From a virus (taxonomy: Duplodnaviria; Caudoviricetes): a DNA stretch of 64,000 nucleotides. Position 1 is the stretch's first letter. Every line of letters starts with the position of its first letter. Made by a program: the position numbers and the translations under genes. A model generated the notes under the pieces. It was given only the letters and a program-made list of their open reading frames with translations, was not told the origin of the DNA and searched no databases. Positions 1,565 through 57,778 of this stretch are shown piece after piece. The stretch is taken from the IMG/VR virus record IMGVR_UViG_3300032305_001732, positions 12,585 to 76,584 of that record; one strand, 5' to 3'.

Positions 1565-2518
1565 ATGACCACGCCGTATGAATTTGGGAAGTTTGCCGCT
1601 GAGCCAAAAGCTCTGCGGTTTCATGAGCCAGAATCTAGTGTTCCGCCTATAAACATGGCTAATGTAGAAGCCCGCGGTGATTATCATTCTTTCAAACACC
1701 GTAACAAATTTCCAACCAGTACTTTATTTTCAAGTTTGTTTGGGGCAGAGGGGCTCGACGCCAAAATTTTAAGCAGGCCAGTTTCCGCCGCACTTGGTCA
1801 CGTAGCGCCGATGCTGCCTATTCCTGGCGCTTCTTTAATTGGTCCTGCAACTGGCGCGGCTAGCGCTGTAACCAATACGCTGGACGACGTTAATAATTTA
1901 CGTTATCGGCAAAGCATTCAGAGTAGAGTTGATAAGTACAACGCAAATCCAGAGCGCGTCAAAGAAAAGCTGCCGGCTGCTAAAATGAAGGCAAGCCCAA
2001 CAATTCCAGCTAGCGCTGTAGATGCTGCTGCCAAATCTATTCCGAAATCTACAGCCCCTGCGAAAACTAGCCCCGCAAAAACCGAAGAGTCTAAATCCAC
2101 AGAGCCGTCTACTGTCTCCAAGGTTTTAAACGCCGTAGATCCGCGCAAGATGGACCCTAGATTGCTCGCTGCGCTTGGTATTGGCGGCGTTGGTCTTGGT
2201 GCTGGCGCGTATTACCTCAGCCGTAAGAAAAAGAAGAAGCCAGAAGACAACTCGGAGAAGCAATCAATGCTCAACGATTTAATGCAGTTCGGCGCCAAGG
2301 TTGCCCAGTCAACGTGCTCCCCGTGCGATATGCCTAACGGCCCCGCCAACAAGAAGCACATGACCGGCGCGAGCCCGGCTGTCACAGAAGCCGGCGAGCA
2401 CTCTGAGGAGTTTGGCACGCCTGAGGTCGCTGAGACAGAGCACAGCAACGCCAAGGCCAAGATGCCAGAAGAAGGCGCAAAGTCGGCGTATGCTTTTGGC
2501 TACATGCTGGGGCGCTAA
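1565..2518 (+). CDS. Putative internal virion polyprotein (glycine zipper + K-x-A motifs)
   Basis: Leader YEFGKFAAE; ALGIGGVGLGAGAYYL helix followed by RKKKKK; then EKQS, FGAKVA and a C-terminal AKSAYAFGY. Confidence 0.6.
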   Translation: MTTPYEFGKFAAEPKALRFHEPESSVPPINMANVEARGDYHSFKHRNKFPTSTLFSSLFGAEGLDAKILSRPVSAALGHVAPMLPIPGASLIGPATGAASAVTNTLDDVNNLRYRQSIQSRVDKYNANPERVKEKLPAAKMKASPTIPASAVDAAAKSIPKSTAPAKTSPAKTEESKSTEPSTVSKVLNAVDPRKMDPRLLAALGIGGVGLGAGAYYLSRKKKKKPEDNSEKQSMLNDLMQFGAKVAQSTCSPCDMPNGPANKKHMTGASPAVTEAGEHSEEFGTPEVAETEHSNAKAKMPEEGAKSAYAFGYMLGR

Positions 2519-2536
2519 ACATACGAGCATAGCCGC

Positions 2537-4264
2537 ATGTTTAACCTAGGCAGCTCTGACACGTGTGCGCGGCTCGGTGAAAGGATCGTGCGCTACGCCT
2601 ATTTGGGCGAAACGAAGATTTACACCTGCGGCCAGTGTGATCCGACGGGCACGACTGATCCGTATTTTTCTGCCGTGCTGTTTTTGGCGAATTTCAATGG
2701 GAACTATTTTAATTGTGCGTTGAATGACGCTACGCTGAGCCGCCGCAGTTGGGTCTCCCAGCCGCCTGTGCTTTCAAACACAGTGTATTACACCACGCCA
2801 GATGTGGAATATCCGGAAGAAGCTCTGCAGGGCAGTCTAGATTTCAACGGCAATGGACTGGCGTGGGCGAATTTGACGACTGCGCTAGGGCTTGAGTTCA
2901 CCGTTGAAGCGTGGGCATATCGTACGACGAATCTGAATTACTACAACGATCCGAATTTGATATTTTTCGCGCTGTTTGAGGGTACAGGCGACGCCGTGCA
3001 GTATCTCGCCGGACCTGCAGCGGTGGGTGTGCGAAATAACGTCTGGATATTGAACGGCGTCGGCACTGCTGCGTCCGCGCCAATTTCGACCTGGCAACAT
3101 GTGGCGCTTGTGGGTCGCGCGCGTTTAGACTCCACATCGGCTGGCGATCTCACGCTGTATATTGATGGCGTGGAGGCAGCAAAACAGCAATACCAAGCGA
3201 TTAAAGGAAATTATGGCGTAGCGACTCCTATCCAGCGCGTGACGCTTGGCTTCGGCAACGGCCCGGAGATTAGCGCCCCCTTTGTTTATTCATTTCCAGG
3301 CTACATGGACGATCTGCGCGTTACGAACCGCGCGCGGTATCTGTCAAATTTCACACCGCCGGTCAGTCCGATGCCGAATGATCAGACGCCTGCGATTTTG
3401 AGTTCCAGCAGCTCATCCAGCGCATCGGACCCGTATTTTAATAACGTCGAGGTCTTGTTGCACTGTGACGCCGATGCGCCGGCGATAGCTCGGATTAGGG
3501 ACTCGTCGCAGCACAATCGTACGATATATCTTGCTAACATCCTTTCGGTGATGATAAATACGCAGGCCAGCAATCAGAGCCCGATTGGACAGAATCAAAG
3601 TGCGTCCAGTCAGCGGGGTGTGTTAACCTCTGCGAGCCAAGCGTGGTCAGATTACTCTGGCGGTGCGTATATCCAGGCCGCGATTACGGGAAATAATCTC
3701 AGCGCGGGTAGCCGTGATTACACGCTTGAATTCTGGGCAAAGTTTTCTGGCGGCGGAACGATCATCAGTCCTGCCGTCGGGTTTGGTCTGGGCCAGAATC
3801 GACTATTTATACGGGATGCTCAAGAGCCGTGGGCCGGTTACGCTCAACGCATGACGATGCAGCTGCAGTACTTGTCTCCTACTGCTGGCGTTGGCATCGT
3901 TAATCGCTGGGCGCACGACGTCACGCCATACCGCAATACGTGGACACATTACGCGATTAGCCGCGCAAACGGGACGACGCGTGTATTTGTGAATGGCCAG
4001 CAGGTGACGCTGGGAATTGACAGCGCGACGCAGGAGCCGTGGAATCCGTTTTCCAGCACGGCGGCCTCGATCAACGACGGCGTTGATTTAAATTTTTCAT
4101 CGTCCCCGTATTTCACAAGTTACGGTAGCGACGCCATGGCTTTATTTGGCGTCGGCTATGACCAGATGGCCAACACCTATATTGACGAATTTCGCTATAC
4201 AGTAGGTGTGGGTAGATATACAACCGGTTTCACAGTCCCCACCGTACCGTACCCGAACTCATAA
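2537..4264 (+). CDS. Tail/virion surface protein with two LamG (ConA-like lectin) domains
   Basis: Two repeats starting DPYF... with FTVEAW / YTLEFW, W.H.A and Y(M/I)D(D/E).R..RY...FT.P motifs, joined by a poly-Ser linker. Confidence 0.75.
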   Translation: MFNLGSSDTCARLGERIVRYAYLGETKIYTCGQCDPTGTTDPYFSAVLFLANFNGNYFNCALNDATLSRRSWVSQPPVLSNTVYYTTPDVEYPEEALQGSLDFNGNGLAWANLTTALGLEFTVEAWAYRTTNLNYYNDPNLIFFALFEGTGDAVQYLAGPAAVGVRNNVWILNGVGTAASAPISTWQHVALVGRARLDSTSAGDLTLYIDGVEAAKQQYQAIKGNYGVATPIQRVTLGFGNGPEISAPFVYSFPGYMDDLRVTNRARYLSNFTPPVSPMPNDQTPAILSSSSSSSASDPYFNNVEVLLHCDADAPAIARIRDSSQHNRTIYLANILSVMINTQASNQSPIGQNQSASSQRGVLTSASQAWSDYSGGAYIQAAITGNNLSAGSRDYTLEFWAKFSGGGTIISPAVGFGLGQNRLFIRDAQEPWAGYAQRMTMQLQYLSPTAGVGIVNRWAHDVTPYRNTWTHYAISRANGTTRVFVNGQQVTLGIDSATQEPWNPFSSTAASINDGVDLNFSSSPYFTSYGSDAMALFGVGYDQMANTYIDEFRYTVGVGRYTTGFTVPTVPYPNS

Positions 4265-4322
4265 TTGGCGCTGTACGGTATACTGGTACCATAATTAAAC
4301 TTGGTATGCCCGGAACGTTACC

Positions 4323-9065: not shown

Positions 9066-11681
9066 ATGAGTGAGCCTGAAGACGACATCACAGACTTAGA
9101 CATTCAGGCGAGCGCTGCTGGGGCCGCGTGGGCGAAGCTGGCTGCTGAATTTAAGCCGGACTACACACCAGAGCAGCTTGAGAACTTGGGTGTATATGAC
9201 GCGTTGTATCGCGGCCAGGGCCCCAGATTAGCCAGCCTAGGCGAGTGGAAGCCTGAATGGGTGTCTGAGCACGACCCGAAAGGCTGGGCGCAGTGGTATA
9301 AGCGCTACACATCTGGCCGGCGTATTCCTGAAGAAGACGAACGACAAATTAAGCGCTGGGCTAGCTTTAAAGCCCGTCATGGCAGCTCTTTCACTAAGAA
9401 CCCGACACCCCGTAGAGGCTGGGCGCTACGTAATTGGGGAATTGACCCCGCCACGTTAGTCGAGCCCGCGGAGCAGCAGGGCGTCACCGAAATGCTGGAC
9501 GAGTATCAGCGCAAAGCTATGCAGAAGCATATTGCAGAGAAGCAATCCGCGCTGCTCCCTGAAGTAAACCTCCAGCCGCACCAAGAGCGCATTCAAGACA
9601 CAGCGCTTGAAGAAAACCCGCGCATGCTGGTGTATCACGGGCTTGGTTCTGGTAAATCTTTATCGGCTATTGCCGCTGCGGAAGCCGCTAAGCAGAAATA
9701 CAACGACGACTACGGAATCGTTGCCCCGGCCAGTCTGCGGGGTAACTTTCAGAAAGAAGTTGAGAAGTTTACCGAAGACAGCAAGCCAGAAATTCTTTCA
9801 TACACCGGGCTTGGTCTTGGCAAAGACTTTAAAAAGCAGCCCGACACCGTGATCATGGACGAGGCTCACAGACTTCGGAATCCTGGCGGGTCTGCTGCGC
9901 AAGCGGCTAAGACAGTGGCTGACAGGGCTAAGCGTGTGCTGCTCCTTACCGGCAGCCCCATCACGAATTCACCCAGCGACCTTGCAAACTTAATCTCAAT
10001 CGTCGCCAAGCAGAATATCACACCGAATGACTTTGAGAAGAAGTTCGTTGGGCAGAAGACAGTGCATCCCGGGATATTCAATTATCTTGCTGGCGTAAAG
10101 CCTGGTGTGCGCCCTGTAATCAAGAATGAGGGCGAGCTGCGCAAGCTTCTCGAGGGCCGCGTTGACTATCAGCCCAGTAAGACGCCTGAAGGCGTGAATG
10201 TTAACGAAGAGAAGATCCAAGTACCGTTAACAAGCGCGCAGCAGAAAATACAAAAAGCACTGCGTACGCAAATTCCGCCGAGCTTCCTCTGGAAGCTTGA
10301 TAAAGAGTTCCCGCTTAGCAAAGACGAACTGTCAAAGCTCAATAGCTTTCTGACGGGCTTGCGGCAGAACTCTGTGTCTACTCGGCCTTTCCGCCAAGAC
10401 TCGGACGCTATCTCTGCGTTTAATCAGTCAGGGAAGCTGCAGGAAGCGTACAAGCGGCTCAAGGAACTTATTGACTCGGACCCGCGCAAAAAAGCGATTA
10501 TCTACTCGAATCACATTGGTGCAGGTATTGAGCCGTATGCCGCCGCGCTTGATAAGAACAGAATACCCTATGGTGTATTCCATGGCGGTATTCCCACCCG
10601 CGTGCGGCAGCAGTCACTTAAAGACTACAACGAGGGCAAGCTCCGGGCGCTTTTAATTGGCCCGGCTGGCGCTGAAGGTTTGTCTACTAAGGGTACGAAC
10701 TTAATCCAGCTTTTAGACCCGCACTGGCACGAGTCACGAACACAGCAGGCGCGTGGCCGTGGGCTGCGCTTTGACAGCCACGATGACCTGCCGGAAGAGC
10801 TAAAGAACGTAGCTGTGCAGCGGTTTATCTCCAAGTCTGAAGAGCCTAGCTTCCTTGGTAAACTTATGGGTTATCGCCGCGAACGTACTGGAGACGAGAT
10901 CTTGGAACGCCTGTCAAACGAAAAAGAAGTATTTAACGAGCGTTTTCGTGATTTGCTCCGGGAGATTGGCTCACGTAACCACGACAAAACCGCATTTGAA
11001 TTAGGCCCGAAGCCTGAGCCCAAATTCGTGCAGGATGGTAAGTGGACACGTTTAGCCGGCACGCCGAAAGCTCCACCACAGGAAGCGCCAAAACCGCTGA
11101 GCCCTATGCCCGGGTCGCTGATGGCGAATAATGTCGAAATTAAACCGCGGCCGCAAATGGTGGCTGCTGGCATGCAGACACCTGAAGACCTTATCCGCAC
11201 AGGCGTTAAAAAGGTAACGGGTTACGACATACCAGCTTTAAGTTACTGCGGCCCGGGTAAAAATTTTGGGCAGGTGGCGTCGTTGGTAGGCATGGGCCAA
11301 GACATGTGGAACAACGGCTTTATGAAAAAGGTAAATGCGGATCTCTCGGCATTCGGCAAAGAAGCCGGTTTTCGCTGGTACAAGCGGTTCCCTGTAAACG
11401 ACAACGTAGCCGTGAACATGAGCCTTGGCGGGCCTTCTGTGACGTTTAAGAAGCTTATCCCTGGTACAAGCTTTACTTTGGGTAATAGAGCGCCTCGTTT
11501 ATATGTCGGAACGCCCGTACCGGGCGTAGCGTATCAGCAATACCTGTCGCCTAAAAAGCACAAAATCACGGCGGAAAAGGAATTTAAAGATTCGCCGGAG
11601 GATGAGAAAGACCAGCGCACGACATACGAGAAGATCCGAGACTTCTTGTTTGGCTCTGAGTATGGCCCCGACGCCGAGTAA
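9066..11681 (+). CDS. Multidomain protein: small N-terminal domain + SF2/SNF2-like helicase (poxvirus D6/D11-like) + C-terminal segments
   Basis: Motifs HGLGSGKS (I), DEAH (II), LLLTGSP (III), GAEGLSTKG (V) and QARGRGLRFDSH (VI). N-terminal GWAQWYKRY..GRR...D.RQIKRW domain. K-x-A/S sites at the domain joints. Confidence 0.85.
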   Translation: MSEPEDDITDLDIQASAAGAAWAKLAAEFKPDYTPEQLENLGVYDALYRGQGPRLASLGEWKPEWVSEHDPKGWAQWYKRYTSGRRIPEEDERQIKRWASFKARHGSSFTKNPTPRRGWALRNWGIDPATLVEPAEQQGVTEMLDEYQRKAMQKHIAEKQSALLPEVNLQPHQERIQDTALEENPRMLVYHGLGSGKSLSAIAAAEAAKQKYNDDYGIVAPASLRGNFQKEVEKFTEDSKPEILSYTGLGLGKDFKKQPDTVIMDEAHRLRNPGGSAAQAAKTVADRAKRVLLLTGSPITNSPSDLANLISIVAKQNITPNDFEKKFVGQKTVHPGIFNYLAGVKPGVRPVIKNEGELRKLLEGRVDYQPSKTPEGVNVNEEKIQVPLTSAQQKIQKALRTQIPPSFLWKLDKEFPLSKDELSKLNSFLTGLRQNSVSTRPFRQDSDAISAFNQSGKLQEAYKRLKELIDSDPRKKAIIYSNHIGAGIEPYAAALDKNRIPYGVFHGGIPTRVRQQSLKDYNEGKLRALLIGPAGAEGLSTKGTNLIQLLDPHWHESRTQQARGRGLRFDSHDDLPEELKNVAVQRFISKSEEPSFLGKLMGYRRERTGDEILERLSNEKEVFNERFRDLLREIGSRNHDKTAFELGPKPEPKFVQDGKWTRLAGTPKAPPQEAPKPLSPMPGSLMANNVEIKPRPQMVAAGMQTPEDLIRTGVKKVTGYDIPALSYCGPGKNFGQVASLVGMGQDMWNNGFMKKVNADLSAFGKEAGFRWYKRFPVNDNVAVNMSLGGPSVTFKKLIPGTSFTLGNRAPRLYVGTPVPGVAYQQYLSPKKHKITAEKEFKDSPEDEKDQRTTYEKIRDFLFGSEYGPDAE

Positions 11682-22865: not shown

Positions 22866-22866
22866 C

Positions 22867-24669: not shown

Positions 24670-26067
24670 ATGGACGGATTGTCTGTTTTATACCAGTCGA
24701 CGCATTCGGCGCCGTTGTACAACATCGGTAACGCGTATGGCTGGCTAGCTAAATCGTCTAAAACAGCTAGCGCTGAATACCATCTATCCGGCCGGCTTTA
24801 TTTAGCTAAAAGCGGCTGGCTTCTTTTATCTGTGCCAAATGCTCTCGTCCGTGGCGTATTTGACGCTATGTCACATGCCGGCGCTGAGCTGCCGCTTGCT
24901 GGCACTATGAATGTGCCCAACGTAGATAAAGAGCTTTTAAACGCGCATATCTCGGTTATGACGGCCGATGACGTAGAAGCTATTGGCGCTAACAAGATCA
25001 ACGAGCGTGGGCATTCTTTTAAGTACGCGTTAGGCCACGTCAAAGAGCTTACGCCCGGCAACATTGACGGGGTTAGCAAAATTTGGGCTATTCAGATCGC
25101 GAGCCCAGAGCTGTCGGCCTTGCGCAAAAGCTATGGGTTGTCTGCGTTGCCTAAAGACGAGCCATTCCACATTACTGTAGCTGTGCGCCGTAAGAACGTG
25201 CTGCGCGAGAACGACGTTAGCAAGTTTGATACAGCTTCTGGCCGCGGGGAGCTAAAAGCGGCCGCAGACGCCGAAACTACGTATGAGTGCAATTGCGCTG
25301 GCCACTGCACCTGCCCGCCTAACTGCGTGTGCAAGAAATCCTGCTGCAAACCATCTAAAACAGCCGCCGACCTTATTCCTGGCGGCGCGGCGGACAACGT
25401 ACCCGACAGTAAGTTCCCTAAAAAAGATTTAGCTTTAGGAGTCAAAGATGAGCGAGAACATACAAGCAATGATCAAATCGCCAAAGAAATTGCCAAAGAT
25501 CATTTGCAAGAAGACCCCTCCTACTACGAAAAAGAAAAGCTGAAATCTGTAGGCAAAACACCGCAAATTATCTTACAACTACGTGCTGCAAAAGAGCATT
25601 CAGATAACAAGCGGTATGACCAGAAAAACCACATTTTGCGGCAATTAATATCAGCCGCTCCGCAGGATTGGGTTGTCGATGATCCGAAACCTTACCATAT
25701 GGGCATCACCCACGCCCCGACTAAATTTAAATTTCACGCTGATCCGAAGATAATTCCGCCTGTTGTGCCGGTAAGCAAAGCCGCGTCGAATAACCCGTAT
25801 ATTGCGCAACTATTTGCTACCCCGCCTAGTATGACTCCCGGCAATACTACTTGGCAGAATGTTGTGCAGCATTTGCGCAATGTTAAGACACGCGGAGATC
25901 GTCAGGCGTTTGCAGAACAGAACACGCAAGGTTTATTGGCAGAACTCGACCCTGAATACAAGAAGAAATTGCACGCGCAGATTGCCAGCAAGAATTATCC
26001 GCGGCCCGATTTTTTAACTAGGATGATTCAACAACACGGAGACAGCGCGTTGAACGCTGTGTCGTGA
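24670..26067 (+). CDS. Modular protein: 2H phosphoesterase + 8-Cys peptide + DUF5661-like domain + further segments
   Basis: HISV (24946) and HITV (25168) paired H-x-S/T motifs; CNCAGHCTCPPNCVCKKSCC; EREHTSN..IAKEIAKDHL.EDPSYY. Modules are separated by SKTA, LKAA, SKTA and SKAA. Confidence 0.7.
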   Translation: MDGLSVLYQSTHSAPLYNIGNAYGWLAKSSKTASAEYHLSGRLYLAKSGWLLLSVPNALVRGVFDAMSHAGAELPLAGTMNVPNVDKELLNAHISVMTADDVEAIGANKINERGHSFKYALGHVKELTPGNIDGVSKIWAIQIASPELSALRKSYGLSALPKDEPFHITVAVRRKNVLRENDVSKFDTASGRGELKAAADAETTYECNCAGHCTCPPNCVCKKSCCKPSKTAADLIPGGAADNVPDSKFPKKDLALGVKDEREHTSNDQIAKEIAKDHLQEDPSYYEKEKLKSVGKTPQIILQLRAAKEHSDNKRYDQKNHILRQLISAAPQDWVVDDPKPYHMGITHAPTKFKFHADPKIIPPVVPVSKAASNNPYIAQLFATPPSMTPGNTTWQNVVQHLRNVKTRGDRQAFAEQNTQGLLAELDPEYKKKLHAQIASKNYPRPDFLTRMIQQHGDSALNAVS

Positions 26068-26380: not shown

Positions 26381-26404
26381 CAGCCAATTTTGTACAATAA
26401 AAGC

Positions 26405-27421
26405 ATGACAGCAATTTCTTCTAAGACTGCCCTTGCAGAGTGGCAGCAGGTGCCGGCTCGAGTCGCCAGGCTTTTGCCGATGGCGGCTGCGTTGCGTCAT
26501 GCCCACGATAAAGCAGCCGCAGCAACAGGGCTATTGCAGCTGGCCGCTGTCAGCTGGGAGCCGGAAACCGCAAAGGTATTTGTTCATACAGCGCACCCGC
26601 AAACTGAGTACACGAAAAAAGCGTACTCGGACAAATTAGACGGCGAAGTGACATTTTTAACTACAGCGCCATCGACCGAGGCTGTTGTAGTCAAACTTGC
26701 TGAAACGTGGTTCCCGCAGATCGGGGAAGCTTGGCACGGCGCAAATAAAATGGTTGGCGGGCCTACGCCGCTATCAAATGCTATCGTGTCTGGATTAGCG
26801 CTCGGCGGCCTTGGCTATGGCGCAGGCGCACTAGTTGAGAATCTGTTCCCAGAGCGTTACATAGAGCGCGGCCAATTGCGTAAACCGCTTGCCGCGTTAG
26901 GTGGTTTAGGTGGCTTAGGTATTGGCGCAATGAATGCCGACGCGTTGGCGAAAATACCCGAGCTGAATAAAAATTTTTGGCAGGCGTGGTTAATCAACAC
27001 GGATAAAACAAAAATACCGGAACCAGTTAAAGCTGCTAATTTTGCTTTGCACTCAAACATTCGCGCGCCGATAATCAAGGTTGATGCCTTTAATCGCGCT
27101 GTGTGGTCTGATGCTAGCCGCGGCTTTGACCAAACTGGGATTGTTGGCGATGGTGGATTCACAGCGCCGCGAGTCGCCGCCGCTACTACAGGAATTGTTT
27201 CCGGCATAGCGGCACAATCGCGGTCGTCAATTATCAGCCCGGCTCACGTTATAACAGGTTTAGCGTCCGCGGGCGTCGGGTTGGCCACTGCTAGCCTTGC
27301 CGGTAGAACTCTTGGCGCGTTGGCTGGATTAACGCCAAGCGCACAAGAAAAAATACAAGATCTTGGGTTGTGGGGCGGGATGTTGAATGCTGTAATCCCG
27401 CCACTCTTTAGCGGACGTTAA
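26405..27421 (+). CDS. Putative internal virion protein with glycine zippers
   Basis: SKTA, VKLA and VKAA motifs; GLALGGLGYGAG, ALGGLGGLGIG and GVGLATASLAG helices; no Cys. Confidence 0.55.
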   Translation: MTAISSKTALAEWQQVPARVARLLPMAAALRHAHDKAAAATGLLQLAAVSWEPETAKVFVHTAHPQTEYTKKAYSDKLDGEVTFLTTAPSTEAVVVKLAETWFPQIGEAWHGANKMVGGPTPLSNAIVSGLALGGLGYGAGALVENLFPERYIERGQLRKPLAALGGLGGLGIGAMNADALAKIPELNKNFWQAWLINTDKTKIPEPVKAANFALHSNIRAPIIKVDAFNRAVWSDASRGFDQTGIVGDGGFTAPRVAAATTGIVSGIAAQSRSSIISPAHVITGLASAGVGLATASLAGRTLGALAGLTPSAQEKIQDLGLWGGMLNAVIPPLFSGR

Positions 27422-32723: not shown

Positions 32724-33073
32724 GCATTAAAAAATACTACAGTGATCATGGCGGTCCGGCTCACGGCAACGACAGATTGCACTGGCCGGGTACTATGGAC
32801 GGCTACCCTGTACGCGGACAGGGATTACCGCCGGATCTAAAAAAGGAAGAGCTAGAAAATCTTGACCTGCAGCTAGATTTCAAGAGCAAGATGTTTGAGC
32901 TTTGGGATCCGCAGCAAAAGGCTGAGTTTGACGACGTAAACGATAAAATAGTCAACGGCTGGTATCTATTACAGCGTCGCAACGACAACTGGGACGACAC
33001 CAACAAGCATTTTCGCGTCTGGCTCGAGTGGGCGCAGGTTTACGGAATGCTGCCGCCAAAGGCTAAGCCATGA
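32720..33073 (+). CDS. Hypothetical protein
   Basis: GTG start overlapping the upstream stop; ORF fits the operon. Confidence 0.6.
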   Translation: MSIKKYYSDHGGPAHGNDRLHWPGTMDGYPVRGQGLPPDLKKEELENLDLQLDFKSKMFELWDPQQKAEFDDVNDKIVNGWYLLQRRNDNWDDTNKHFRVWLEWAQVYGMLPPKAKP

Positions 33074-34062
33074 ACAAAAACGAAAAACAAGCAGACTGGC
33101 TGGACACATTAGGCACTACCGGCGGCGCTGTAACTTCAGCGCTGGCTAAAGCGCCGGGGCAGCTGTGGGATGCTGGCGCACAGGCCGCTAAAAACTTCTA
33201 CCGGCACGGTACGACTGTTGTAACCCCCGCGGTACAAAAAGCTTACGAGGCCGCGCAAAAAGCGAAAGCAACTGCAGCGAGCCAGAAAGCGCAGAGCGAC
33301 GCGCAAAATAAAATTACTACGGATAACGCAGCGGCGAAGCAGCACGGTAGTGACATATTGACTTATGGCCTCGGTGGTCTTGGTGCTGGCATTGTATTAA
33401 CGCGCCTGCATCACCTGCTGTCTGGCGCGAATAAGCAGCAGCCCAAATACACGAAATTTGGGCCTGGGCCGCAGGGCGTCGAAGACGACGAAAAGATTGC
33501 CAACGATGATTGGTACACAAAAATCGTTAGCGCGCCCGGCCATCTTATCCAGAATTTTAGCGATCCTGCTAATAGGGACGCCGCAAAAGCTGTACTTATG
33601 CTAGGCGGCACAATGGGCGGATTATACGGCGGCTACTCAATTATGTCGCAGTTGGCCGAGAAGAAACGCAAAGAAGAGCTTCAAGCGCGCGTAGAAGACG
33701 CAAAAAAAGAATATCAGCGCGCGCTTACAGGCCGCAAAGTTGCTGAGGATCTAGACACAGCATTTGCGCGTATTAGCAAACAAGCGGAAAACGGCAAATC
33801 CGAAATTGTTCGCGATACTGCATTGTGGCTGGCTGACACTGCTTTTGAGCCCATTCGCAGGAGTGGCGCCATGCCGTTATATGCTAGTGCTGTTGCAGGC
33901 TCTGGCTTACTGTCTGGCAAGCTGATGTATGACTGGGCTCGCGCGCGTAGTAAAGACAAGGCTCTAGCTGAGGCGCGCAAAGCCCGCGCCAGAATCGGCG
34001 GCGCTGCTCCTATCTACATTGATCCTGAGCAGTTAGCTGCAGTAAAACGCGTCGCTGACTGA
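33070..34062 (+). CDS. Putative internal virion polyprotein with three to four K-x-A-delimited glycine-zipper repeats
   Basis: EKQA, EKIA, RKVA and SKQA each precede or follow a G-rich helix plus basic stretch; no Cys. Confidence 0.6.
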   Translation: MNKNEKQADWLDTLGTTGGAVTSALAKAPGQLWDAGAQAAKNFYRHGTTVVTPAVQKAYEAAQKAKATAASQKAQSDAQNKITTDNAAAKQHGSDILTYGLGGLGAGIVLTRLHHLLSGANKQQPKYTKFGPGPQGVEDDEKIANDDWYTKIVSAPGHLIQNFSDPANRDAAKAVLMLGGTMGGLYGGYSIMSQLAEKKRKEELQARVEDAKKEYQRALTGRKVAEDLDTAFARISKQAENGKSEIVRDTALWLADTAFEPIRRSGAMPLYASAVAGSGLLSGKLMYDWARARSKDKALAEARKARARIGGAAPIYIDPEQLAAVKRVAD

Positions 34063-38539: not shown

Positions 38540-38551
38540 ACAGGGAGGTTT

Positions 38552-39274
38552 GTGATGGCTATTGTTAATGCAGAGCTGCTTCGTTTAGCCAAGCAGCGGT
38601 TCACTAAAGCCGCTGTTGTAATGCCGGGCATGGACCCAGCCGCTGGCGGTGCGCCCCCCGCTGACCCGGCCGCTATGGGCGCCCCTCCCGCCGACCCGGC
38701 TGCTATGGGCGGCGCTCCGGCGCCAATGCCGGCTATGGATCCAAACGCCATGGCGGCGCAAGCTGCCCCGCCAATGCCTCCAGCCGGTGGTCCACCCGCA
38801 GCCGCGCCGCAGCAAAAGCTTAAGCCGGAACAAATGATGCAGATGATCGACTATCGTCTGTATAACATGCAACAGCAATTAACTGCGATCATGAATGCCT
38901 TGGGCGTAAAACTTCCGCCCGAGGCAATTGTGCTGCCCCCCGGATCGACCTCCGCGCCCGCGCCAGAAACGGCGCTCCCCGGCGGTCCCGGCGCTCCGGC
39001 AGCCCCTGCGGCAGCTCCTGCTGCTGGTGGCGATCCCGCCGCCGCGCAGCTGCCGCAGGACGTATACGCGGGGCCCGATCCTACGCAGAACGGCGGCGCG
39101 GTGTCGCCGATCGCGCCAGCAAAGGCCGCGTGGTGGCAGCAACCAGAGCCGGCGAAGGCTGCTTCTTATATTGGCGATCCGGTGCCGGCGACTGAAGAAG
39201 TTCCGGCTGACTTACAGGTTTCAGCAAACGCCACGAGCTTTTTGCTGAGGAGCCTGTCGCAAAATGCGCGTTAA
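38552..39274 (+). CDS. Pro/Ala-rich low-complexity protein with a short central helical domain
   Basis: DPAA(G/M)GAPPA repeats at about 38633-38720; LKPEQMMQMIDYRLYNMQQQL core; TKAA and two AKAA motifs; no Cys. Confidence 0.6.
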   Translation: MMAIVNAELLRLAKQRFTKAAVVMPGMDPAAGGAPPADPAAMGAPPADPAAMGGAPAPMPAMDPNAMAAQAAPPMPPAGGPPAAAPQQKLKPEQMMQMIDYRLYNMQQQLTAIMNALGVKLPPEAIVLPPGSTSAPAPETALPGGPGAPAAPAAAPAAGGDPAAAQLPQDVYAGPDPTQNGGAVSPIAPAKAAWWQQPEPAKAASYIGDPVPATEEVPADLQVSANATSFLLRSLSQNAR

Positions 39275-39506: not shown

Positions 39507-39507
39507 T

Positions 39508-41367: not shown

Positions 41368-41454
41368 TTTTCAATAAGAGTGGATTATTCAGCTAAATCC
41401 AGGTAAATTAAACATACCGAACGATTAAGTCGAATAAGCCGCATGGAGGTGGCC

Positions 41455-43848
41455 GTGGGTACGAATTACAGCAAAAATGTTTCCAATAAGCTCACTGCAA
41501 TGAGTAACTACGCCCGTAAAGGCGTAAAACTCGCAGCCCTCGGCGGCAAAGGTGATGACGTCCCGTTTGAGCAGGCGTTTAGCAATTTAGCTCACGCGTA
41601 TCTGCAAGACAAAGCTCCGGGTCTCATGGATCACGAGGTAGGCTTTCAGCTCCTCGACCGCAACGCCGAAAACACAAAGGCGGTCGGCGTGTTTGCATTT
41701 AAGGTTGGGTCATTGTGGCTTTACGCGCCGATGTTCTTTTTAAACGGCGACCTAAAGGGCCACGAGCTCCTGTATTTAAAGAATCAGGATATGTTCGTGC
41801 CGCTTAAGGAAAACTGGATTAACTACCTCGTTAATCGTAAGCCGAGCATTTTAGGCCAAAACATCGACCGCAATTTATCGCAATTCGGCCAACGACAGCC
41901 TGACTTCACGCAGATGAGCCGCTCGCCGTCAAAGTTTGGCTCCGCCCAACCTACGCTCAAGGAAATGATTTCAGACGTTCTTCCGGCATTTGCCAAGAGC
42001 GCCACAATGAATACTTCCCGCGTTTTTGAGGACATGGGCAAGAAGCTCAACCTCGCGCAGTTCCTTAAAGAAGCCGAGCTGACAACGATTGACTTTCTTG
42101 TAAAGTCTTGCCAGTACGCCCCGCAGTTAGCCACTGCGCTCGAGGAATTCCACGGTCTCGACATTATTAAAGATGCTATTGCCGCCGCCACAGCTCGCGG
42201 TACTGAGACAAAGATCGCCAGCGTGTTGTCTGAGTCGCCCAAAACGCCTGCAGCTGAGAAGAGCCTGAAGATTATCGACGGCGTTACGATGCAAACAAAG
42301 CTGCCGCCTGAAGCCACAGAAGAAGATCAAGAAAAACTTCTGCAAGACGGCCTGCTTATCCTCGACCAGCGCGACAGCGATAACGTTTCAATTCCGTACA
42401 ACATCCAGGTGGAAAAGAAGCTGTACAACCCCACCGAAAGCGGACTGTACGAGATTCTGGTCAAGCCGGGCAATACCGAGCGCTGCTATGTTGCCGTGTA
42501 TCCGCAAGGCTCTGCCAAGCGCGAAAAAATGGTGACGGTTGTGCGCGTTGACGGTAAGCCTGATTGGTTAAATACACGCGCTAATAACGTATGGGCTTTA
42601 ACCCGCATAGAGGGCGAAGAGTTCGACACGTGGTTCGACAAGCTGCCCGAAGCCACTAGTGTTCCGGGTAAATCTGCGCGTTACATGGCTATCAGCAAGC
42701 GCGGCGATACGACTGTGCCTTTCCGAGTGTTGCGCGAGTATGGCGACAGCGGTAAAGACTCCACAGTGTACGAAGTGCACATGGAAGATCACTGCCATCA
42801 CCGCATGCCAGGTGATATCTCTGGTTGCTGCTATACAGACCCGCTGAATTACGATAAATATCGTGACGGCGTGCGCATTCATTTAAACGGTAAAAAAGGC
42901 ACAAGCTTACGTTCCAGCATGGGCGATATTTTTGTGCCGGAAGGTTTTAAGCTGCTCAAGGTCAGCAAGGGCGAAGACGATACAGATTCGTCGGAAGGCC
43001 AGGATAGTTGCGCCTGCGGCGAGAGCGAGACGCCGCCGCTCATGCCGGGCACGCTGCTTGATGCTCAATTAGAGCTTATGGGTAAAACTGCCGCACTTAT
43101 TGTGCGGCACACGGGTACGGATGTCATTGTTAATGACGTTCGGCAAGGCTCTGAGAAGAGCGCGTTAATTCACCTCGTTGGCAGCCACGGCTTGCGGGAG
43201 GGCGCTGCCCGTGAAATTATTAAGAAGGCCTCAGCAAAGGGCATGTTTGAATGCCGCGTTAAATACGCTGATCCATATGGGGCGCCAATGATGGTTAACG
43301 ACGCGCCAGGGTCGCCGTCTATGCCAGAGCCGACAATGGGCGGCGAAACTGTTCTTAATACACGCGTGCCGACACAGCTCGGTATTGATATCGGCGTGCC
43401 AGTTCCGGGCATGAGCGCTATGCGTACAGACAGGTCAGTTTACAACCCGAACCCTGACTTTGATTCGACGCCGATGAGTCGCATGCAAGACAAAGATTTG
43501 CAGAGCGTACTTGACGCGGCTAGTTCAGGACAGCGCGAAGTATTTGATACAGCCATGATCGGCAGCATGCTTCGCGCTGTGCGCGACGATTCGCTTGTTG
43601 ATCGCTACATGGGCGAACTGACAAAGGGTCTTGATAAGCTCGGCCGCATTCTGTTTATGTTCTACTGGCACGGTGATCGCTTCGCTGAGCGTTACGGCAA
43701 GTCAGATATGCCGGAATTGGAAGATTCGCTGCGCAACGCTTTTGAAATGCTCGGCGACGTAATTCTCTTCCTGAAGCAGAAGACTATCGAGCCGTATCCT
43801 GATACTGCGGCGCAAGACGTGGATCTTGGCGCTGTTGCAAATTCTTAA
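41455..43848 (+). CDS. Large hypothetical (probably head-associated) protein
   Basis: GGAGG SD + GTG start; leader ending VKLAA; internal AKSA and VKYA; no family recognised. Confidence 0.6.
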   Translation: MGTNYSKNVSNKLTAMSNYARKGVKLAALGGKGDDVPFEQAFSNLAHAYLQDKAPGLMDHEVGFQLLDRNAENTKAVGVFAFKVGSLWLYAPMFFLNGDLKGHELLYLKNQDMFVPLKENWINYLVNRKPSILGQNIDRNLSQFGQRQPDFTQMSRSPSKFGSAQPTLKEMISDVLPAFAKSATMNTSRVFEDMGKKLNLAQFLKEAELTTIDFLVKSCQYAPQLATALEEFHGLDIIKDAIAAATARGTETKIASVLSESPKTPAAEKSLKIIDGVTMQTKLPPEATEEDQEKLLQDGLLILDQRDSDNVSIPYNIQVEKKLYNPTESGLYEILVKPGNTERCYVAVYPQGSAKREKMVTVVRVDGKPDWLNTRANNVWALTRIEGEEFDTWFDKLPEATSVPGKSARYMAISKRGDTTVPFRVLREYGDSGKDSTVYEVHMEDHCHHRMPGDISGCCYTDPLNYDKYRDGVRIHLNGKKGTSLRSSMGDIFVPEGFKLLKVSKGEDDTDSSEGQDSCACGESETPPLMPGTLLDAQLELMGKTAALIVRHTGTDVIVNDVRQGSEKSALIHLVGSHGLREGAAREIIKKASAKGMFECRVKYADPYGAPMMVNDAPGSPSMPEPTMGGETVLNTRVPTQLGIDIGVPVPGMSAMRTDRSVYNPNPDFDSTPMSRMQDKDLQSVLDAASSGQREVFDTAMIGSMLRAVRDDSLVDRYMGELTKGLDKLGRILFMFYWHGDRFAERYGKSDMPELEDSLRNAFEMLGDVILFLKQKTIEPYPDTAAQDVDLGAVANS

Positions 43849-44278: not shown

Positions 44279-44297
44279 ATATCTACGGAGTAATACC

Positions 44298-46794: not shown

Positions 46795-46825
46795 AACACG
46801 TAAGGAGCCATTAAGGTAATAACTT

Positions 46826-47089: not shown

Positions 47090-47094
47090 TTGTT

Positions 47095-48171: not shown

Positions 48172-48211
48172 TCACAACAGAAATGTTTATTGCCGCGGGA
48201 AAAACTTAACT

Positions 48212-51209: not shown

Positions 51210-52475
51210 ATGGACTCAAACGCCGTAGACAAATTTGCTGGATTGTTTGCCAAATGCGCGGCAGCGGGTGATCGGGAACCGCTGCGTAAAGAAGCTGCGG
51301 CGCAATCATTGGTAAAAGAAGCGATTACAGCTACGCAACTTTTAATGCCGTTAGGCGGTGCGGCTCTCGGCGGCGCTGCGGGTTATTTAGGTACGGATAA
51401 TGAAAAGCGAAAATTGCGTAATGCTTTATACGGCGCGTTAACTGGCGGCGTGGCAGGCACTGGCGCGCAGCTGGCTTCCCCGATGATCAAAGACATCTTA
51501 TCGCGTTTTTCGGGCGGTGGTGCGCCCGCTGCTGCAGCTCAAGGCGGCGGGCAGTTTAGCGTTGCGCCAGAACAGCCGGCGGCAAAAGCAACTGGCGCGG
51601 CCACCCCCGCAGCCGTCACAGTGCCGTCATCGCCCGCTCCCACCGCCGCGGAAACAGCCAAGCGAGAAGCTGCTGATGCCGTCAACGCTGCGCCAAACGA
51701 CGCCGGAATGCCGGGCGCCCCGATGAATAACGCGCGATACGTTAACGACGCGTCCGGCGCAATTCTCGGCGGCGTAGCCGTAGATCGCGTTGGTGCGCGT
51801 TTCGCGCCCGGTAGGCTCAGCGGCCGTTATCATGAGCTCAATCGGCTAGCGCTCAAAAACCAAACGGTTAACAACCTGCTGTACGCAATGGGCGATAAAA
51901 GTAAGCCTGCGACTGATTTCTTAAAACCGCCGCAAAAATTTCGCTCGACGGCTGACAAGCCGCGCATGACGCCTGTTGAAGCACAAGCAGCGGCTAAGGC
52001 GTGGCGACAAAAGCAGGACGCTATCGAGTACATTCGCCGTACGGGGTCGATTGGTAATACTGAAGCTCAGCGCCGCGCTATTTTACCGGTATTAGAGGAA
52101 TCTATGCGAACGCAAGCGCCTAAACCGCAAGGCGCGAAAGGCAAACCAAACGCCGACCTGTCGAACGTTCGAACACAGCTTGACAATAAAAAAGACGTGT
52201 TTGTAGGGCGGCCGTCTTTGAAAGGCTGGCGAGGTCTTAGAGCCGGAGCTGGCGGTGTAGCCGGTTTGCTTGCAGCGGATACGGCGCACGCAAAAACACA
52301 AAACGCCCTCGCTGCTAAGCTTCAACAAAATCCTAACTACGGCCTAGGCGATCTTGGTAAAGATATTTACGGCACGGGCCGCGATTTGGTCCAGCAGCCT
52401 GCAGCGTTTGGGAAGGGGTTAGGCGCGGGTCTGTACGACCACTATCTGCGCGGGTTCGTAGAAAATAAAAAATAA
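51210..52475 (+). CDS. Putative internal virion protein with glycine zippers
   Basis: Leader with DKFA, AKCA, RKEA and VKEA; GGAALGGAAGY...KRKLR...GALTGGVAG; single Cys, within the leader. Confidence 0.55.
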   Translation: MDSNAVDKFAGLFAKCAAAGDREPLRKEAAAQSLVKEAITATQLLMPLGGAALGGAAGYLGTDNEKRKLRNALYGALTGGVAGTGAQLASPMIKDILSRFSGGGAPAAAAQGGGQFSVAPEQPAAKATGAATPAAVTVPSSPAPTAAETAKREAADAVNAAPNDAGMPGAPMNNARYVNDASGAILGGVAVDRVGARFAPGRLSGRYHELNRLALKNQTVNNLLYAMGDKSKPATDFLKPPQKFRSTADKPRMTPVEAQAAAKAWRQKQDAIEYIRRTGSIGNTEAQRRAILPVLEESMRTQAPKPQGAKGKPNADLSNVRTQLDNKKDVFVGRPSLKGWRGLRAGAGGVAGLLAADTAHAKTQNALAAKLQQNPNYGLGDLGKDIYGTGRDLVQQPAAFGKGLGAGLYDHYLRGFVENKK

Positions 52476-52506: not shown

Positions 52507-53985
52507 ATGAGCATGATCAAAGTCATTCAGCCGCAGTCGCAAGACTTCAGCGCGCCGGTTGCTTCATTGATTAAAGTTTCCAGCCGCGGCATTATCGGCA
52601 ATGACAAAATTGATCTCGTAAAACGAGCGGGTGCGGAATTCGTCAATACGCTGCAGAACATTAAGTTCGCAAAAGACGAAGTGCCTGTGCACATGATCGC
52701 TATCGGCGCCACAGAAGATTACGGCCCTAATCGTAACGGTGACGGCTTCAAGCGCGCATGCTGTGAGCAATATCACGACACATTTGTTAAGCACGCCCGT
52801 TTCTACCGCGACCATCTCAACAAGAACCCAGCTAAGAGCTACGGCCTTGTAAAAGCATCTGCCTACCACGAGCCAATGCGGCGAATTGAACTTGTAGCTG
52901 CGCTCAACGGCACAAAAGAAGCCGCAGAACGTAACGGCGGGCTGCTTGCGGATAAAGAGCTTGAGAAACTTGCCAGAGGTGACGATATTGGCGTCTCGAT
53001 GGCCTGCACTATTCCTTTTGACGTATGTAGTCATTGCGGTAACAAAGCCCGCACACGCGCTGAGTATTGCGACGACACATCTAGCGGCGGCCACTGCAAA
53101 GCTGGCGGATTAAAACACAATCTTGGTAAGTGCGCATTTGACGGCAGTGTACTTCATGCCGATAACCCGAATCCGCGCTTCTTTGATATCTCTCACGTAT
53201 TTCGCCCTGCTGACCGTATCGCCTACATCTCCGGCGATTTGAGCAAGGCGGCTAGCGCTGGTGTAGTCTCCGGCGCTGAGCTTGCCGAGCAGATGGGCCT
53301 TAGCGCGCCGTCTGGTCTTGGCATTGATAATGGCATAAGTCCAGCAGTCAGAGCACAAGCAATCGCTCTCGAGAAGTTGGCGCAAGCTGAAGCCATTAGC
53401 GTAAATGAGCGTAACTGGATTCGCGCGGCATTAGCTGATTCCGCCGCAGTTCAGCCGGCGTTAAGCCACGACGAGCTAGGCAACATCAAACTTGCCGAAG
53501 CTGTTTATGCGCTTACAGATGCCGGCGTTATCTTGTCACTTAAAGACTTTTTAACGCTCACTGTTAAGTCAGCAAACACCGCGCTTGTGCAGTCAGTGTC
53601 AAACGCACTGCCTGGCGTATTTTCAAAACTGGCTGAGGAGCAAGATTTGCTTTCAACTTTAGAGCAAAATCCTTATAATCCTGCTTATACGGCAAATCAC
53701 CGCACGCTTTTGTGGGCGGAGAAGCTTGCTGCAACAAGAAGCGCGTTACCTCACGATGTTGAAAAGCGCGCTTATTTGGCGGCAATTCGCACAGCCGAAC
53801 AAACTGAAGATCCCGCGTCGCACTTTAACATGAACAAAACTGCATCGACTAATAATCCTGCAGCTACTAGCCTTGCGCGACATTACGCTCTGTATAAAAT
53901 CGCAGCTTTTGCTGGTTTCATGAAAAAATATGACGAAGATGGGTTGACAGCACCGTATTGTGTTATGCAGAATTATGTAATGTAA
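52507..53985 (+). CDS. Prohead (maturation) protease, HK97/herpes-like fold with zinc-ribbon insertion
   Basis: NRNGDGF, FYRDHLNK (His), GVSMAC (Ser), CSHCG...YC...HC, and FFDISHVFRPADRIA; located upstream of the scaffold and capsid genes. Confidence 0.75.
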   Translation: MSMIKVIQPQSQDFSAPVASLIKVSSRGIIGNDKIDLVKRAGAEFVNTLQNIKFAKDEVPVHMIAIGATEDYGPNRNGDGFKRACCEQYHDTFVKHARFYRDHLNKNPAKSYGLVKASAYHEPMRRIELVAALNGTKEAAERNGGLLADKELEKLARGDDIGVSMACTIPFDVCSHCGNKARTRAEYCDDTSSGGHCKAGGLKHNLGKCAFDGSVLHADNPNPRFFDISHVFRPADRIAYISGDLSKAASAGVVSGAELAEQMGLSAPSGLGIDNGISPAVRAQAIALEKLAQAEAISVNERNWIRAALADSAAVQPALSHDELGNIKLAEAVYALTDAGVILSLKDFLTLTVKSANTALVQSVSNALPGVFSKLAEEQDLLSTLEQNPYNPAYTANHRTLLWAEKLAATRSALPHDVEKRAYLAAIRTAEQTEDPASHFNMNKTASTNNPAATSLARHYALYKIAAFAGFMKKYDEDGLTAPYCVMQNYVM

Positions 53986-55347: not shown

Positions 55348-55366
55348 TATTTAAACGGAGGTTTCC

Positions 55367-56398: not shown

Positions 56399-56443
56399 AA
56401 CTAGTTCTTAACTCACCTATACGGGAACACGGAGGTTCCAAAA

Positions 56444-57370
56444 ATGCCTACACAGCAAGAAATCCAACTGCTCAACGAAACACTGTTTGAGCAGCTCGAT
56501 ACCCCCGGCATGCAGAAGCAGGCCGTTGATGCAGTAAATGACTTCACGCGCACAAAGATGCGTGAAGACGGTTTCTACCGTCGGATTATGCCCCCGCTGA
56601 CTATCACCAACGACGAGCTCGACCGTCAGGTTGACACTGACAAGCCCGTCAAGGTTGTGGACAAGGAGCCTGATTCGCCGGCCGCCGTGTCGATCCCCTT
56701 CGCCACGCTGCCTGTTAACTTTTACATCCGTGGCCCGCGTTACCGCGTCATGTTTGACCGGATCGTGTCGCCTCGCGCTGTGAAGGACGTCGACGAACTG
56801 CGGACCTACGTCATGGACATTCGACAGGTTCTGTCGGACAACATGATTAAGGACATGCTCGCCGAAGAGGACGGAAAGTTCATGGCCGCGATCAACGCTG
56901 TGCTCCCGACCGCGGGCGCCCCGGCTGTTGGCTCGGGCGAAGTTCAATACGAGGAGATCTACGGTGGTATCACCCGCGAGACGCTGGTTGATGCCCTCAA
57001 GATCATGCCGCGTACGGCTTCGCACTTCGAGGTTGAGACTTGCCTCGTGAATAACCTCACGATCAAGGAGCTCCTCAAGTTCGGTCGCGACGAAATGGGT
57101 GGTGACTTCTCGCAAGACATCATCAAGAACGGCTGGGCGGAAACCAATTTCCTCAACTGCCGCTGGATTGTCACGATCAAGACCGGCCTTGTCCCGACGG
57201 ACAGCCTGTTCATGTTCGCGTCGCCGAAGTTTATCGGAAAGAACTACGAGCTCGAGCCCACCACGATGTACATCCGTCGTGAGGCTTACATGCTCGAGTA
57301 CTTTGCGTACGAGACGACTGGCGGCTCGTTCGGTCACACGAACGGTCTGGCTCGCGTTGATTTCAAGTGA
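56444..57370 (+). CDS. Major capsid protein (HK97 fold)
   Basis: GGAGG SD, strongly biased codons, and position after protease, scaffold and decoration genes; RTKMREDGFYRRIMP...DKEPDSPA and KDVDELRTY...EEDGKF pattern; MQKQA leader. Confidence 0.75.
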   Translation: MPTQQEIQLLNETLFEQLDTPGMQKQAVDAVNDFTRTKMREDGFYRRIMPPLTITNDELDRQVDTDKPVKVVDKEPDSPAAVSIPFATLPVNFYIRGPRYRVMFDRIVSPRAVKDVDELRTYVMDIRQVLSDNMIKDMLAEEDGKFMAAINAVLPTAGAPAVGSGEVQYEEIYGGITRETLVDALKIMPRTASHFEVETCLVNNLTIKELLKFGRDEMGGDFSQDIIKNGWAETNFLNCRWIVTIKTGLVPTDSLFMFASPKFIGKNYELEPTTMYIRREAYMLEYFAYETTGGSFGHTNGLARVDFK

Positions 57371-57394
57371 TTTAACCATTAAGGAGCACAGACC

Positions 57395-57778
57395 ATGGAC
57401 CAGGTAAAGCAGGCGGCTGAGCAGGGTTATGCCACGTTAGTGGCGGAGCTTGCCGCGCCGTACTTTTTCGAGAAGCTTTCGGCGCACGGTATTTCGCCGC
57501 GCTCTGAGGACGAGGCCGCAGAAATGTGGACCGCAGCCCAAAAGCTTCATGTGCTCTATACGGCGGAGCAGCAAAAGGCTGCAGCCGTGCAGACCTCCAA
57601 ACTCGCGAGCGCCAACGCACAGCTTGATGCTGCGCTTGTCGCCGCGGGCTTGGCGGGTTCTGAAAAAGTTGCAGCGTTCAACCAAGCTGCCGAGGTAGCC
57701 GCCCAGCACGCCAACATCGCCGACGCGGTGTTAAAGCTGCAGGCTGCCGCGGCTATTGCTCTGCAGAATGCGGGCTAA
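57395..57778 (+). CDS. Head-associated Ala-rich protein
   Basis: AAGGAG SD; VKQA, QKAA, SKLA and EKVA motifs. Confidence 0.6.
   Translation: MDQVKQAAEQGYATLVAELAAPYFFEKLSAHGISPRSEDEAAEMWTAAQKLHVLYTAEQQKAAAVQTSKLASANAQLDAALVAAGLAGSEKVAAFNQAAEVAAQHANIADAVLKLQAAAAIALQNAG

Follow-up and report, generated by a model that had tools for sequence, protein, structure and literature searches.

Maturation of the phage head by a protease of the gp21 type, which reads a three-residue code, is textbook knowledge for phage T4 and is known for the phiKZ-like giant phages. The T4 protease has about 210 amino acid residues (aa) and its sites are Leu/Ile-x-Glu; to our knowledge, all characterised phage proteases of the gp21 type cut after Glu. 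Like these enzymes, gp245 of SPN3US cuts after A-x-E, with preferences for Val at P4 and Ser at P1' (PMC10052503). For the assemblin of pseudorabies virus, cuts after Ala have been predicted, at YLQA-T and VQA-S (PMC4498786). Here we analyse a stretch of viral DNA of 64,000 nucleotides (nt) from IMG/VR record IMGVR_UViG_3300032305_001732 (positions 12,585 to 76,584), hereafter the window. A preliminary description of the window had reported a genome-wide Lys-x-Ala tripeptide (K-x-A) at leader ends and domain joints, and had proposed that the product of the gene at position 52507 is a head protease that recognises it. We consider it likely that 52507 encodes a prohead protease that cuts after K-x-A, with Ala at P1 as in herpesviruses, and that it processes about 12-15 proteins. 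No description of a K-x-A phage protease motif was found in the literature searched.

Genes and their products are named here by the first nucleotide of the gene in the window. Gene starts were taken as those of the longest open reading frames (ORFs), and certain leader lengths may be wrong. Expected counts were obtained from composition-preserving shuffles of each protein. Over the 64 proteins of the + strand, K-x-A was observed 152 times against 125 expected (z 2.5), which placed it outside the top patterns, and K-x-S was slightly depleted in the same proteins. Only four proteins were individually significant: 41443 (10 observed, 4.1 expected), 49877 (14 and 4.5), 52507 (16 and 4.5) and 55367 (5 and 1.6). 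The remaining 60 proteins pooled had 107 K-x-A against 110 expected, and the first 50 residues of the proteins outside the head set defined below had 18 against 16.7. All the K-x-A and K-x-S strings quoted in the preliminary description are present in the ORFs for which they were cited; most of them are explained by chance, and the pattern is not genome-wide, as about 12-15 of the 64 proteins carry the signal and the rest lie at or below expectation. Its remark that the glycosyltransferases, the actin-like protein and the tail proteins lack the signal was correct.

The signal is concentrated in a head set of seven proteins (41443, 49877, 51210, 52507, 54025, 55367 and 57395), with 63 K-x-A against 27.7 expected (z 7.4). 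This was the strongest of 1255 spaced dipeptides, the second-best reaching z 3.55. K-A, K-xx-A, K-xxx-A and A-x-K were flat in the head set, and no x-E pattern was among its top enriched spaced dipeptides. The shuffle comparison that had been proposed therefore gave a divided answer, an excess beyond Lys and Ala content in the head set and expectation elsewhere. Because the head set was picked after the counts had been seen, independent replication was sought.

The window makes up the final 64 kb of a contig of 76.6 kb, and its source is an uncultured phage of ~200 kb belonging to an Arash-like clade. Its capsid protein (56444) aligns over 96% of its length, at 28-30% identity, with the protein annotated as major capsid protein in Salmonella phage Arash, and shares 26% identity with a protein from Vibrio phages D69, D181 and D148. 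At least 65 related loci were found in IMG/VR, many of them on contigs of 190-230 kb, with capsid identities from 99% to 56%. blastn of the head module DNA against 50,697 phage records gave zero matches. K-x-A was the top pattern in the orthologs of 49877, 52507, 54025, 55367 and 57395 in 22 of 22 relatives (z 4.8-11.2; capsid identity 56-99%), and it was unremarkable in six control proteins of the same 22 loci. Many head-module orthologs in the relatives are only 23-40% identical to those of the window. It was also the top pattern in Arash gp220-225 (37 against 15.3, z 6.2) and in the head set of Vibrio phage D69 (42 against 15.7, z 7.3); D181 and D148 were left out of the motif test. Conservation of the motif in homologs, a check named in the preliminary description, was found in the 22 relatives, Arash and D69, and at the capsid site in every aligned ortholog (Table 1).

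A profile search of 1.84 billion representatives returned 3662 clusters of the protease family at 50% identity, 2093 of them with E below 1e-30. In 104 full-length representatives, mutually less than 50% identical, K-x-A was observed 1426 times against 379 expected (z 62), and each of the 104 carries 8-19 copies against 3.6 expected. A control was provided by 42 intein-bearing proteases, whose inteins have 52 K-x-A against 55.9 expected and whose exteins have 580 against 162.5. Since the inteins lie in the same genes and are not enriched, nucleotide or composition bias is ruled out. Composition bias as the cause of the excess was rejected on the head-set shuffles together with this control.

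Ortholog families were assembled from loci fetched around four anchor genes. The ratio of observed to expected K-x-A was 3.6 in the family of 55367, 3.2-3.8 in 52507, 2.6 in 49877, 2.5 in 57395, 2.3 in 41443, 2.1 in 38552, 2.0 in 54025 and 1.8 in 26390, and 0.86 in all other families pooled; K-x-A was the top pattern in six separate families. In a position test, N-terminal K-x-A was found in 75-100% of members against 16-46% expected for 16763, 26390, 32313, 33070, 38552, 41443, 49877, 52507, 54025, 55367, 56444 and 57395. We keep 16763 as a doubtful substrate because its locally basic N-terminus may produce its score. Of the ~19 proteins given as examples in the preliminary description, about 12 were borne out (24670, 26390, 32313, 33070, 38552, 41443, 49877, 51210, the protease, 54025/55367, the capsid protein and 57395), 9066 is tentative, and 4323 was not supported in ortholog families. 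The proteins 1538, 12675, 13949 and 15996, with 0-1 orthologs found, stand outside this verdict.

When distant orthologs (25-46% identical) are compared, between a fifth and three-quarters of the sites occupy new positions (about half in the scaffold-like proteins), yet the density is kept. Turnover with the density kept indicates that the number of sites is under selection, as would be expected if the proteins must be degraded. We also counted islands, that is, spaced dipeptides conserved in at least 60% of members between flanks less than 45% identical. In the enriched families, 22 of 144 islands were K-x-A and the next pattern had 4; outside these families, K-x-A islands were found in 24670 only. 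K-x-A is thus selectively maintained, with turnover of its sites, in orthologs that are only 23-40% identical.

The sites of the enriched families also have a context. Leu and Phe are favoured at P5 and Glu, Val, Ile and Thr at P4, and P1' is Ala or Ser at 44% of the sites; these biases are missing from the K-x-A sites of other families. Where the tripeptide is replaced at 46 conserved sites, it is most often by K-x-S (26), K-x-G (13), R-x-A (11) or A-x-A. Replacement by Ser or Gly and by Arg is what would be expected of a small P1 pocket and a basic P3.

In the AlphaFold model of 52507, with a mean predicted local distance difference test score (pLDDT) of 75, residues 17-234 align to T4 gp21 (5jbl) with Z 9.6 over 140 residues and a root-mean-square deviation of 3.0. 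The model aligns to herpesvirus assemblins with Z 5.5-6.6, and Foldseek alone gave a weak match (E 0.09). The predicted fold of 52507 is that of T4 gp21 and herpesvirus assemblin. A PDB profile search with the 52507 family alignment (A1) gave nothing relevant. His62, His103 and Ser164 are invariant in 19 orthologs, and His62 and Ser164 may be equivalent to the catalytic residues of gp21. The C-terminal tail is helical in the model and carries many K-x-A sites. The best islands are K247 and K444, which lie in two of the three segments with pLDDT below 50 (237-270 and 434-448); K39 falls in a predicted helix. In the window the gene order is 49877, 51210, 52507, 54025, 55367, 55841 and 56444 (capsid), and the order from protease to capsid is identical in Arash.

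Two further observations concern the protease family. Among the best 150 representatives, 45 (~30%; P0008-P0149) are 600-1300 aa long owing to inteins with LAGLIDADG, Hint and intein-splicing domains; one such intein-bearing example is the 52507 ortholog of locus L049, with 1297 aa. The inteins interrupt conserved motifs at three or more positions: between Gly73 and N-R-N-G-D, behind His103 and close to Ser164. Cluster C mycobacteriophages have a distant relative of the protease domain, at 30% identity; in Mycobacterium phage LinStu (36571-55041) it forms the N-terminus of the 1286-aa gp97, whose gene lies two genes upstream of that of the major head protein. This fusion protein has 13 K-x-A against 6.9 expected (z 2.4), and the N-terminus of the LinStu head protein has two K-x-A/S sites.

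In the capsid proteins of Arash and D69, K-x-A was found in a matching N-terminal context by eye, with no formal alignment; in Arash it reads V-K-E-A and lies near residue 28. Past residue 70, the capsid family has 2 K-x-A against 14.4 expected and 4 E-x-A against 16.1, counted in sequences that are not independent; this depletion is weak evidence because E-x-A is depleted as well and the family is highly conserved. The 54025 product has no Pfam or PHROG family, and its position and composition suggest a scaffold. In 49877 orthologs that are 25-33% identical, about half of the K-x-A sites are at new positions, and 49877 is likely to be a core or scaffold protein that is cut to small pieces.

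Several proteins have the motif chiefly near the N-terminus. The 41443 product has a variable leader of ~28 residues with K-x-A at its end, after which comes a strongly conserved block, and 38552 has a like layout of variable leader, K-x-A and conserved block. In 27 of 29 positional orthologs of 51210 there are 1-4 K-x-A in the first 60 residues, with whole-protein counts of 72 against 79.7 expected. N-terminal K-x-A is found in 91% of the 32313 family against 46% expected and in 75% of the 33070 family against 43%; in 33070, sites 223 and 236 are conserved amid poorly conserved flanks. The family of 32720, which lies between these two genes, has 3 K-x-A against 9.2 expected. The 41443 product weakly matches Arash gp218, which was detected in virions (Arash virion data). 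For 41443, a PDB profile search (A3) gave nothing relevant and an ESM Atlas look-up gave no usable match.

Two families are modular. In the model of 24670, all four sites listed in Table 1 lie in segments with pLDDT below 50 at domain edges, including a 4-residue dip at 370-373. K196 and K370 qualify as islands (flank identity 0.15 and 0.32), and K118, the single K-x-A within a folded strand, is not conserved. Relatives of 24670 differ in whether they carry the Cys-rich module, a module with a Nudix box and one further module, and several edges of these modules lie at or beside K-x-A (K-A-A). The helicase 9066 has Pfam SNF2 and Helicase_C domains, and its conserved core stops just before K641. 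The junction at residue 159 has K-x-A in 85% of the orthologs. Optional inserts of up to ~300 aa occur there with K-x-A flanking both sides, and 12 of 16 have K-x-A/S at the right edge; overall, the 9066 family is depleted in K-x-A (0.72x). The idea that cargo domains are carried as cassettes between cleavage sites thus agrees with these two families, in which optional modules are bounded by K-x-A.

Individual relatives give examples of such modules. In locus L143 the 24670 ortholog has an optional module with a clear Nudix box between K-x-A sites. In loci L179 and L196 the 9066 orthologs have a module of ~200 aa, opening with F-Y-H-G-T, between K-x-A sites at the helicase junction.

In the mechanism that we propose, the 52507 product would be a prohead serine protease with the fold of T4 gp21 and herpesvirus assemblin, maturing the capsid from inside the assembled prohead. 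It would recognise Lys at P3, any residue at P2 and Ala at P1, with Ser or Gly occasionally in place of Ala and Arg in place of Lys. The enzyme would cleave off the 27-residue N-terminal propeptide of the capsid protein and release itself from its tail, after which it would probably degrade itself. It would chop the scaffold-like 49877, 54025, 55367 and 57395 into small peptides, and trim the N-terminal leaders of 41443, 38552, 26390 and 51210, probably also those of 32313 and 33070. The modules of 24670, and possibly those of the SNF2 helicase 9066, would be separated. Any activity of the released enzymes in the head or in the host is purely speculative.

This locus can be compared with four described systems. 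Like T4 gp21, the putative protease has the gp21 fold, its gene lies beside scaffold-like and capsid genes, the tripeptide is dense in scaffold-like proteins, the capsid protein has an N-terminal site, and sites occur inside the protease itself. Unlike in T4, the predicted P1 and P3 residues are Ala and Lys rather than Glu and Leu/Ile, there is no sequence-level or Pfam match, and 52507 has 492 aa with a long helical tail compared with about 210 aa.

The phages of phiKZ gp175 (Ser/Ala/Gly-x-Glu) and SPN3US gp245 (A-x-E) share with the present one large virions that also carry a multisubunit RNA polymerase (judged here from its genes and the Arash virion data), and many head proteins whose N-terminal propeptides, predicted ones here, end in a three-residue motif with P4 and P1' preferences (PMC10052503). 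In contrast to theirs, the motif here ends in Ala and not Glu, the capsid protein has 308 aa with a propeptide of only 27 residues, and the clade is Arash-like. Features in common with herpesvirus assemblin are the fold class and, as predicted here, Ala at P1, a P3 determinant and a small residue (Ser or Thr, for example) at P1' (PMC4498786). In assemblin, the protease domain is released from a C-terminal scaffold-like extension at a site just past the catalytic domain, and the same is predicted here. The differences are Lys at P3 rather than Val/Leu/Ile/Gln, and the number of predicted sites, which runs to dozens over about a dozen proteins as against two or three sites; assemblin also belongs to a herpesvirus system, whereas the present virus infects bacteria. 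By analogy, the predicted rule of K-x-A followed by Ala or Ser would combine the P3-x-P1 logic of gp245 and assemblin with the P1 residue of the herpesviruses.

The closest system is that of Arash and Vibrio phages D69, D181 and D148, which have a homologous capsid protein and protease at only 28-38% identity. Arash has the same gene order around the capsid and protease genes, with counterparts detected in virions, and Arash and D69 share the K-x-A enrichment and the N-terminal capsid site. For Arash, however, no processing or protease has been reported, and the word 'protease' is absent from the main text of the Arash paper.

Several points weigh against a protease that cuts after K-x-A. The 52507 product matched no Pfam protease family at E up to 0.1, its sole match being PHROG 2774, of unknown function, and His62 and Ser164 are candidate catalytic residues only, proposed from their invariance. 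The conserved sites K39, K95, K137 and K154 fall in predicted helices of the folded catalytic domain, where they may be inaccessible unless the enzyme destroys itself. Other conserved sites do lie at leader ends, in low-pLDDT linkers and at module edges, much as first described. A systematic test of insert edges gave a modest result, 17 and 13 matches against 9.4 expected, chiefly from the helicase family. The seven proteins of the head set were chosen with the counts known, though the result was replicated elsewhere, and the family z-scores are inflated by shared ancestry. Cleavage, the cut after Ala and the packaging of the substrates in the head are deduced from sequence comparison. The proposal that 52507 is a head protease which recognises K-x-A and processes scaffold, capsid and internal proteins fits all the comparative evidence gathered, from turnover and fold to leader ends, linkers and module edges, with cleavage as its inferred part.

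Of the other explanations, the one that survives best, although we think it unlikely, is that K-x-A is a non-proteolytic assembly or targeting motif, through which scaffold and internal proteins would contact the capsid interior, the portal or one another, or a site of lysine modification, and that the protease uses another signal. The enrichment is confined to head-module proteins and includes sites in folded helices of the protease domain, cutting at K-x-A is predicted rather than seen, and the internal proteins of T4 use N-terminal capsid-targeting sequences, all of which would suit such a motif. A binding motif is, however, unexpected at the edges of optional modules or in disordered linkers, and at 8-19 copies per protease protein with rapid positional turnover. 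The replacement of Ala by Ser or Gly and of Lys by Arg, with the P4 and P1' preferences, mirrors the subsite logic of gp245 and assemblin, and no alternative enriched motif such as the x-E types is among the top patterns.

It is improbable that the sites are cut at another bond or by another enzyme, for example by a trypsin-like host or phage protease that cuts after Lys, with Ala secondary. Lys is the most strictly kept position, and cleavage in HK97 is reported to occur after Lys. Yet the Ala two residues on is as strictly required as the Lys, K-A and K-xx-A are not enriched, and a P3-x-P1 rule is followed by the only enzymes of the gp21/assemblin fold that have been characterised. No second protease gene was recognised in the family scans of the window, in which many genes are unannotated. 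That K-x-A is a functionless by-product of Lys/Ala-rich helical composition or of nucleotide bias is very hard to believe: the proteins are Ala-rich and helical and the window-wide z is low, but the shuffles leave the excess in both the head set and the protease family, other spacings and the reverse order are flat, the embedded inteins are unenriched, and a slight depletion (0.86x) is seen in the non-head proteins that these genomes encode.

If 52507 does cut after K-x-A, its predicted specificity of Lys at P3 and Ala at P1 would be new for a phage in the literature searched, head maturation by a three-residue code being itself known. The predicted Ala at P1 is shared with assemblins of the same fold and so links phage and herpesvirus proteases. 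The protease family is very large yet unannotated, and K-x-A provides a simple sequence rule by which mature ends and head-internal proteins could be predicted across a widespread clade of ~200-kb phages with mostly unknown genes. As Arash and several Vibrio phages are in culture, the prediction is directly testable.

The K-x-A-bounded modules hint at packaged, injected enzymes, which if confirmed would bear on early infection and counter-defence. We tentatively raise the possibility that K-x-A is a general load-and-release code, in which a domain placed between two sites of a head-targeted carrier is packaged, cut free and delivered with the DNA. Such a code would account for the gain and loss of optional modules at K-x-A edges in the families of 24670 and the SNF2 helicase. 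Candidate cargoes are the 2H phosphoesterase, the Cys-rich peptide, the Nudix-box module and the F-Y-H-G-T module seen in relatives. If true, the clade would be a natural system of exchangeable, pre-made injected enzymes.

Table 1. Features of the window with their positions (nt of the window). Counts are K-x-A observed against expected; percentages are of family members.
Feature	Position	Strand	Remarks
Predicted prohead protease, 492 aa	52507..53985	+	gp21/assemblin-fold domain at residues 17-238 (nt 52555-53220)
K39-R-A41, N-terminal segment of protease	52621..52629	+	K39 and A41 invariant, R40 at least 90%; in 97% of 37 family members
K247-A-A249, candidate release site just past catalytic domain	53245..53253	+	97% of family; flank identity 0.24
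K444-T-A446, protease tail	53836..53844	+	89% of family; flank identity 0.30
Major capsid protein, 308 aa	56444..57370	+	Identity to Arash major capsid protein
K25-Q-A27, predicted end of 27-residue capsid propeptide	56516..56524	+	K and A invariant, x varies, in 23/23 aligned orthologs
K-x-A-rich head-module protein, 440 aa	49877..51199	+	14 against 4.5; 9 conserved sites
Acidic, Ala/Gly/Met-rich scaffold-like protein, 440 aa	54025..55347	+	9 against 5.6; 8 sites in at least 66% of members
Small K-x-A-rich head-module protein, 141 aa	55367..55792	+	5 against 1.6; 5 sites in 76-96% of members
Small Ala-rich protein after capsid gene, 127 aa	57395..57778	+	K-x-A top pattern; K61 site in 100% of members
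51210 protein	51210..52475	+	N-terminal leader with K-x-A at K8, K15, K27 and K36, then Gly-zipper-like stretch
Large 801-aa protein	41443..43848	+	10 against 4.1; 8 conserved sites; leader site K29 at 41527-41535
240-aa protein between RNA polymerase genes	38552..39274	+	K19 (38606-38614) and K191 (39122-39130) in 96% and 100% of members; flank identity 0.33-0.35
343-aa protein	26390..27421	+	Conserved K-x-A near residue 41; N-terminal K-x-A in 88% of members against 21% expected
Three small genes	32313..34062	+	32313-32723 and 33070-34062 with leader-type K-x-A, weaker support; 32720-33073 between them, none
Modular protein: leader, 2H phosphoesterase, Cys-rich, DUF5661, further modules	24670..26067	+	Pfam 2H-SAK, DUF5661
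Sites of 24670: K31; K196; K230; K370	24760-24768; 25255-25263; 25357-25365; 25777-25785	+
SNF2-type helicase with tentative junction sites	9066..11681	+	K24 9135-9143; K159 (K-x-S here) 9540-9548; K641 10986-10994
Multisubunit RNA polymerase genes	34088-38539 and 39508-41367	+
Sugar and methyl transferase genes	18127, 20344	+
Volactin-type actin-like gene	22792	+
Tail sheath gene	61398	+

Every long ORF of the window is on the + strand. Ten head-module proteins scanned against PHROG and Pfam yielded no usable match other than PHROG 2774, and PHROG scans of ten further window proteins gave endolysin-like and tail-sheath hints only. The split of the RNA polymerase is unusual, with the beta domains and the N-terminal beta-prime domains in a 1483-aa protein and the beta-prime C-terminal domain in a 619-aa protein. 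Between the two polymerase genes (34088-41367) lie the K-x-A-rich 240-aa gene 38552 and an 80-aa ORF. The polymerase subunits show no K-x-A enrichment (ratios 1.0 and 0.72). In purified Arash virions, RNA polymerase subunits and a helicase were abundant (Arash virion data); the 'coverage' column of the Arash table, which shows 100% from 2 peptides, was disregarded.

Several families, among them those of the tail sheath (61398-63998), 57797-58162 and 48119-48607, have K-x-A well below expected (ratios 0.23-0.38). Selection against chance cleavage might explain this depletion, as might common descent by itself. The block 43859-48607, which separates 41443 from the head module, encodes a protein with fn3 and glycine-rich parts (44238) and its neighbours. 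In the related loci no ortholog was found for 44238, one for 46214, fourteen for 46826 and twenty for 47095, and ~90 each for the edge genes 43859 and 48119 and the other neighbours of that block. It looks like a hypervariable, fibre-like cassette within an otherwise conserved region. The gene at 18127-20328 encodes a 733-aa fusion of two methyltransferase domains and a mannosyltransferase domain, and near it 22792-23871 encodes a strong match to the volactin family of actin-like proteins (E 5.5e-60); neither has a motif signal.

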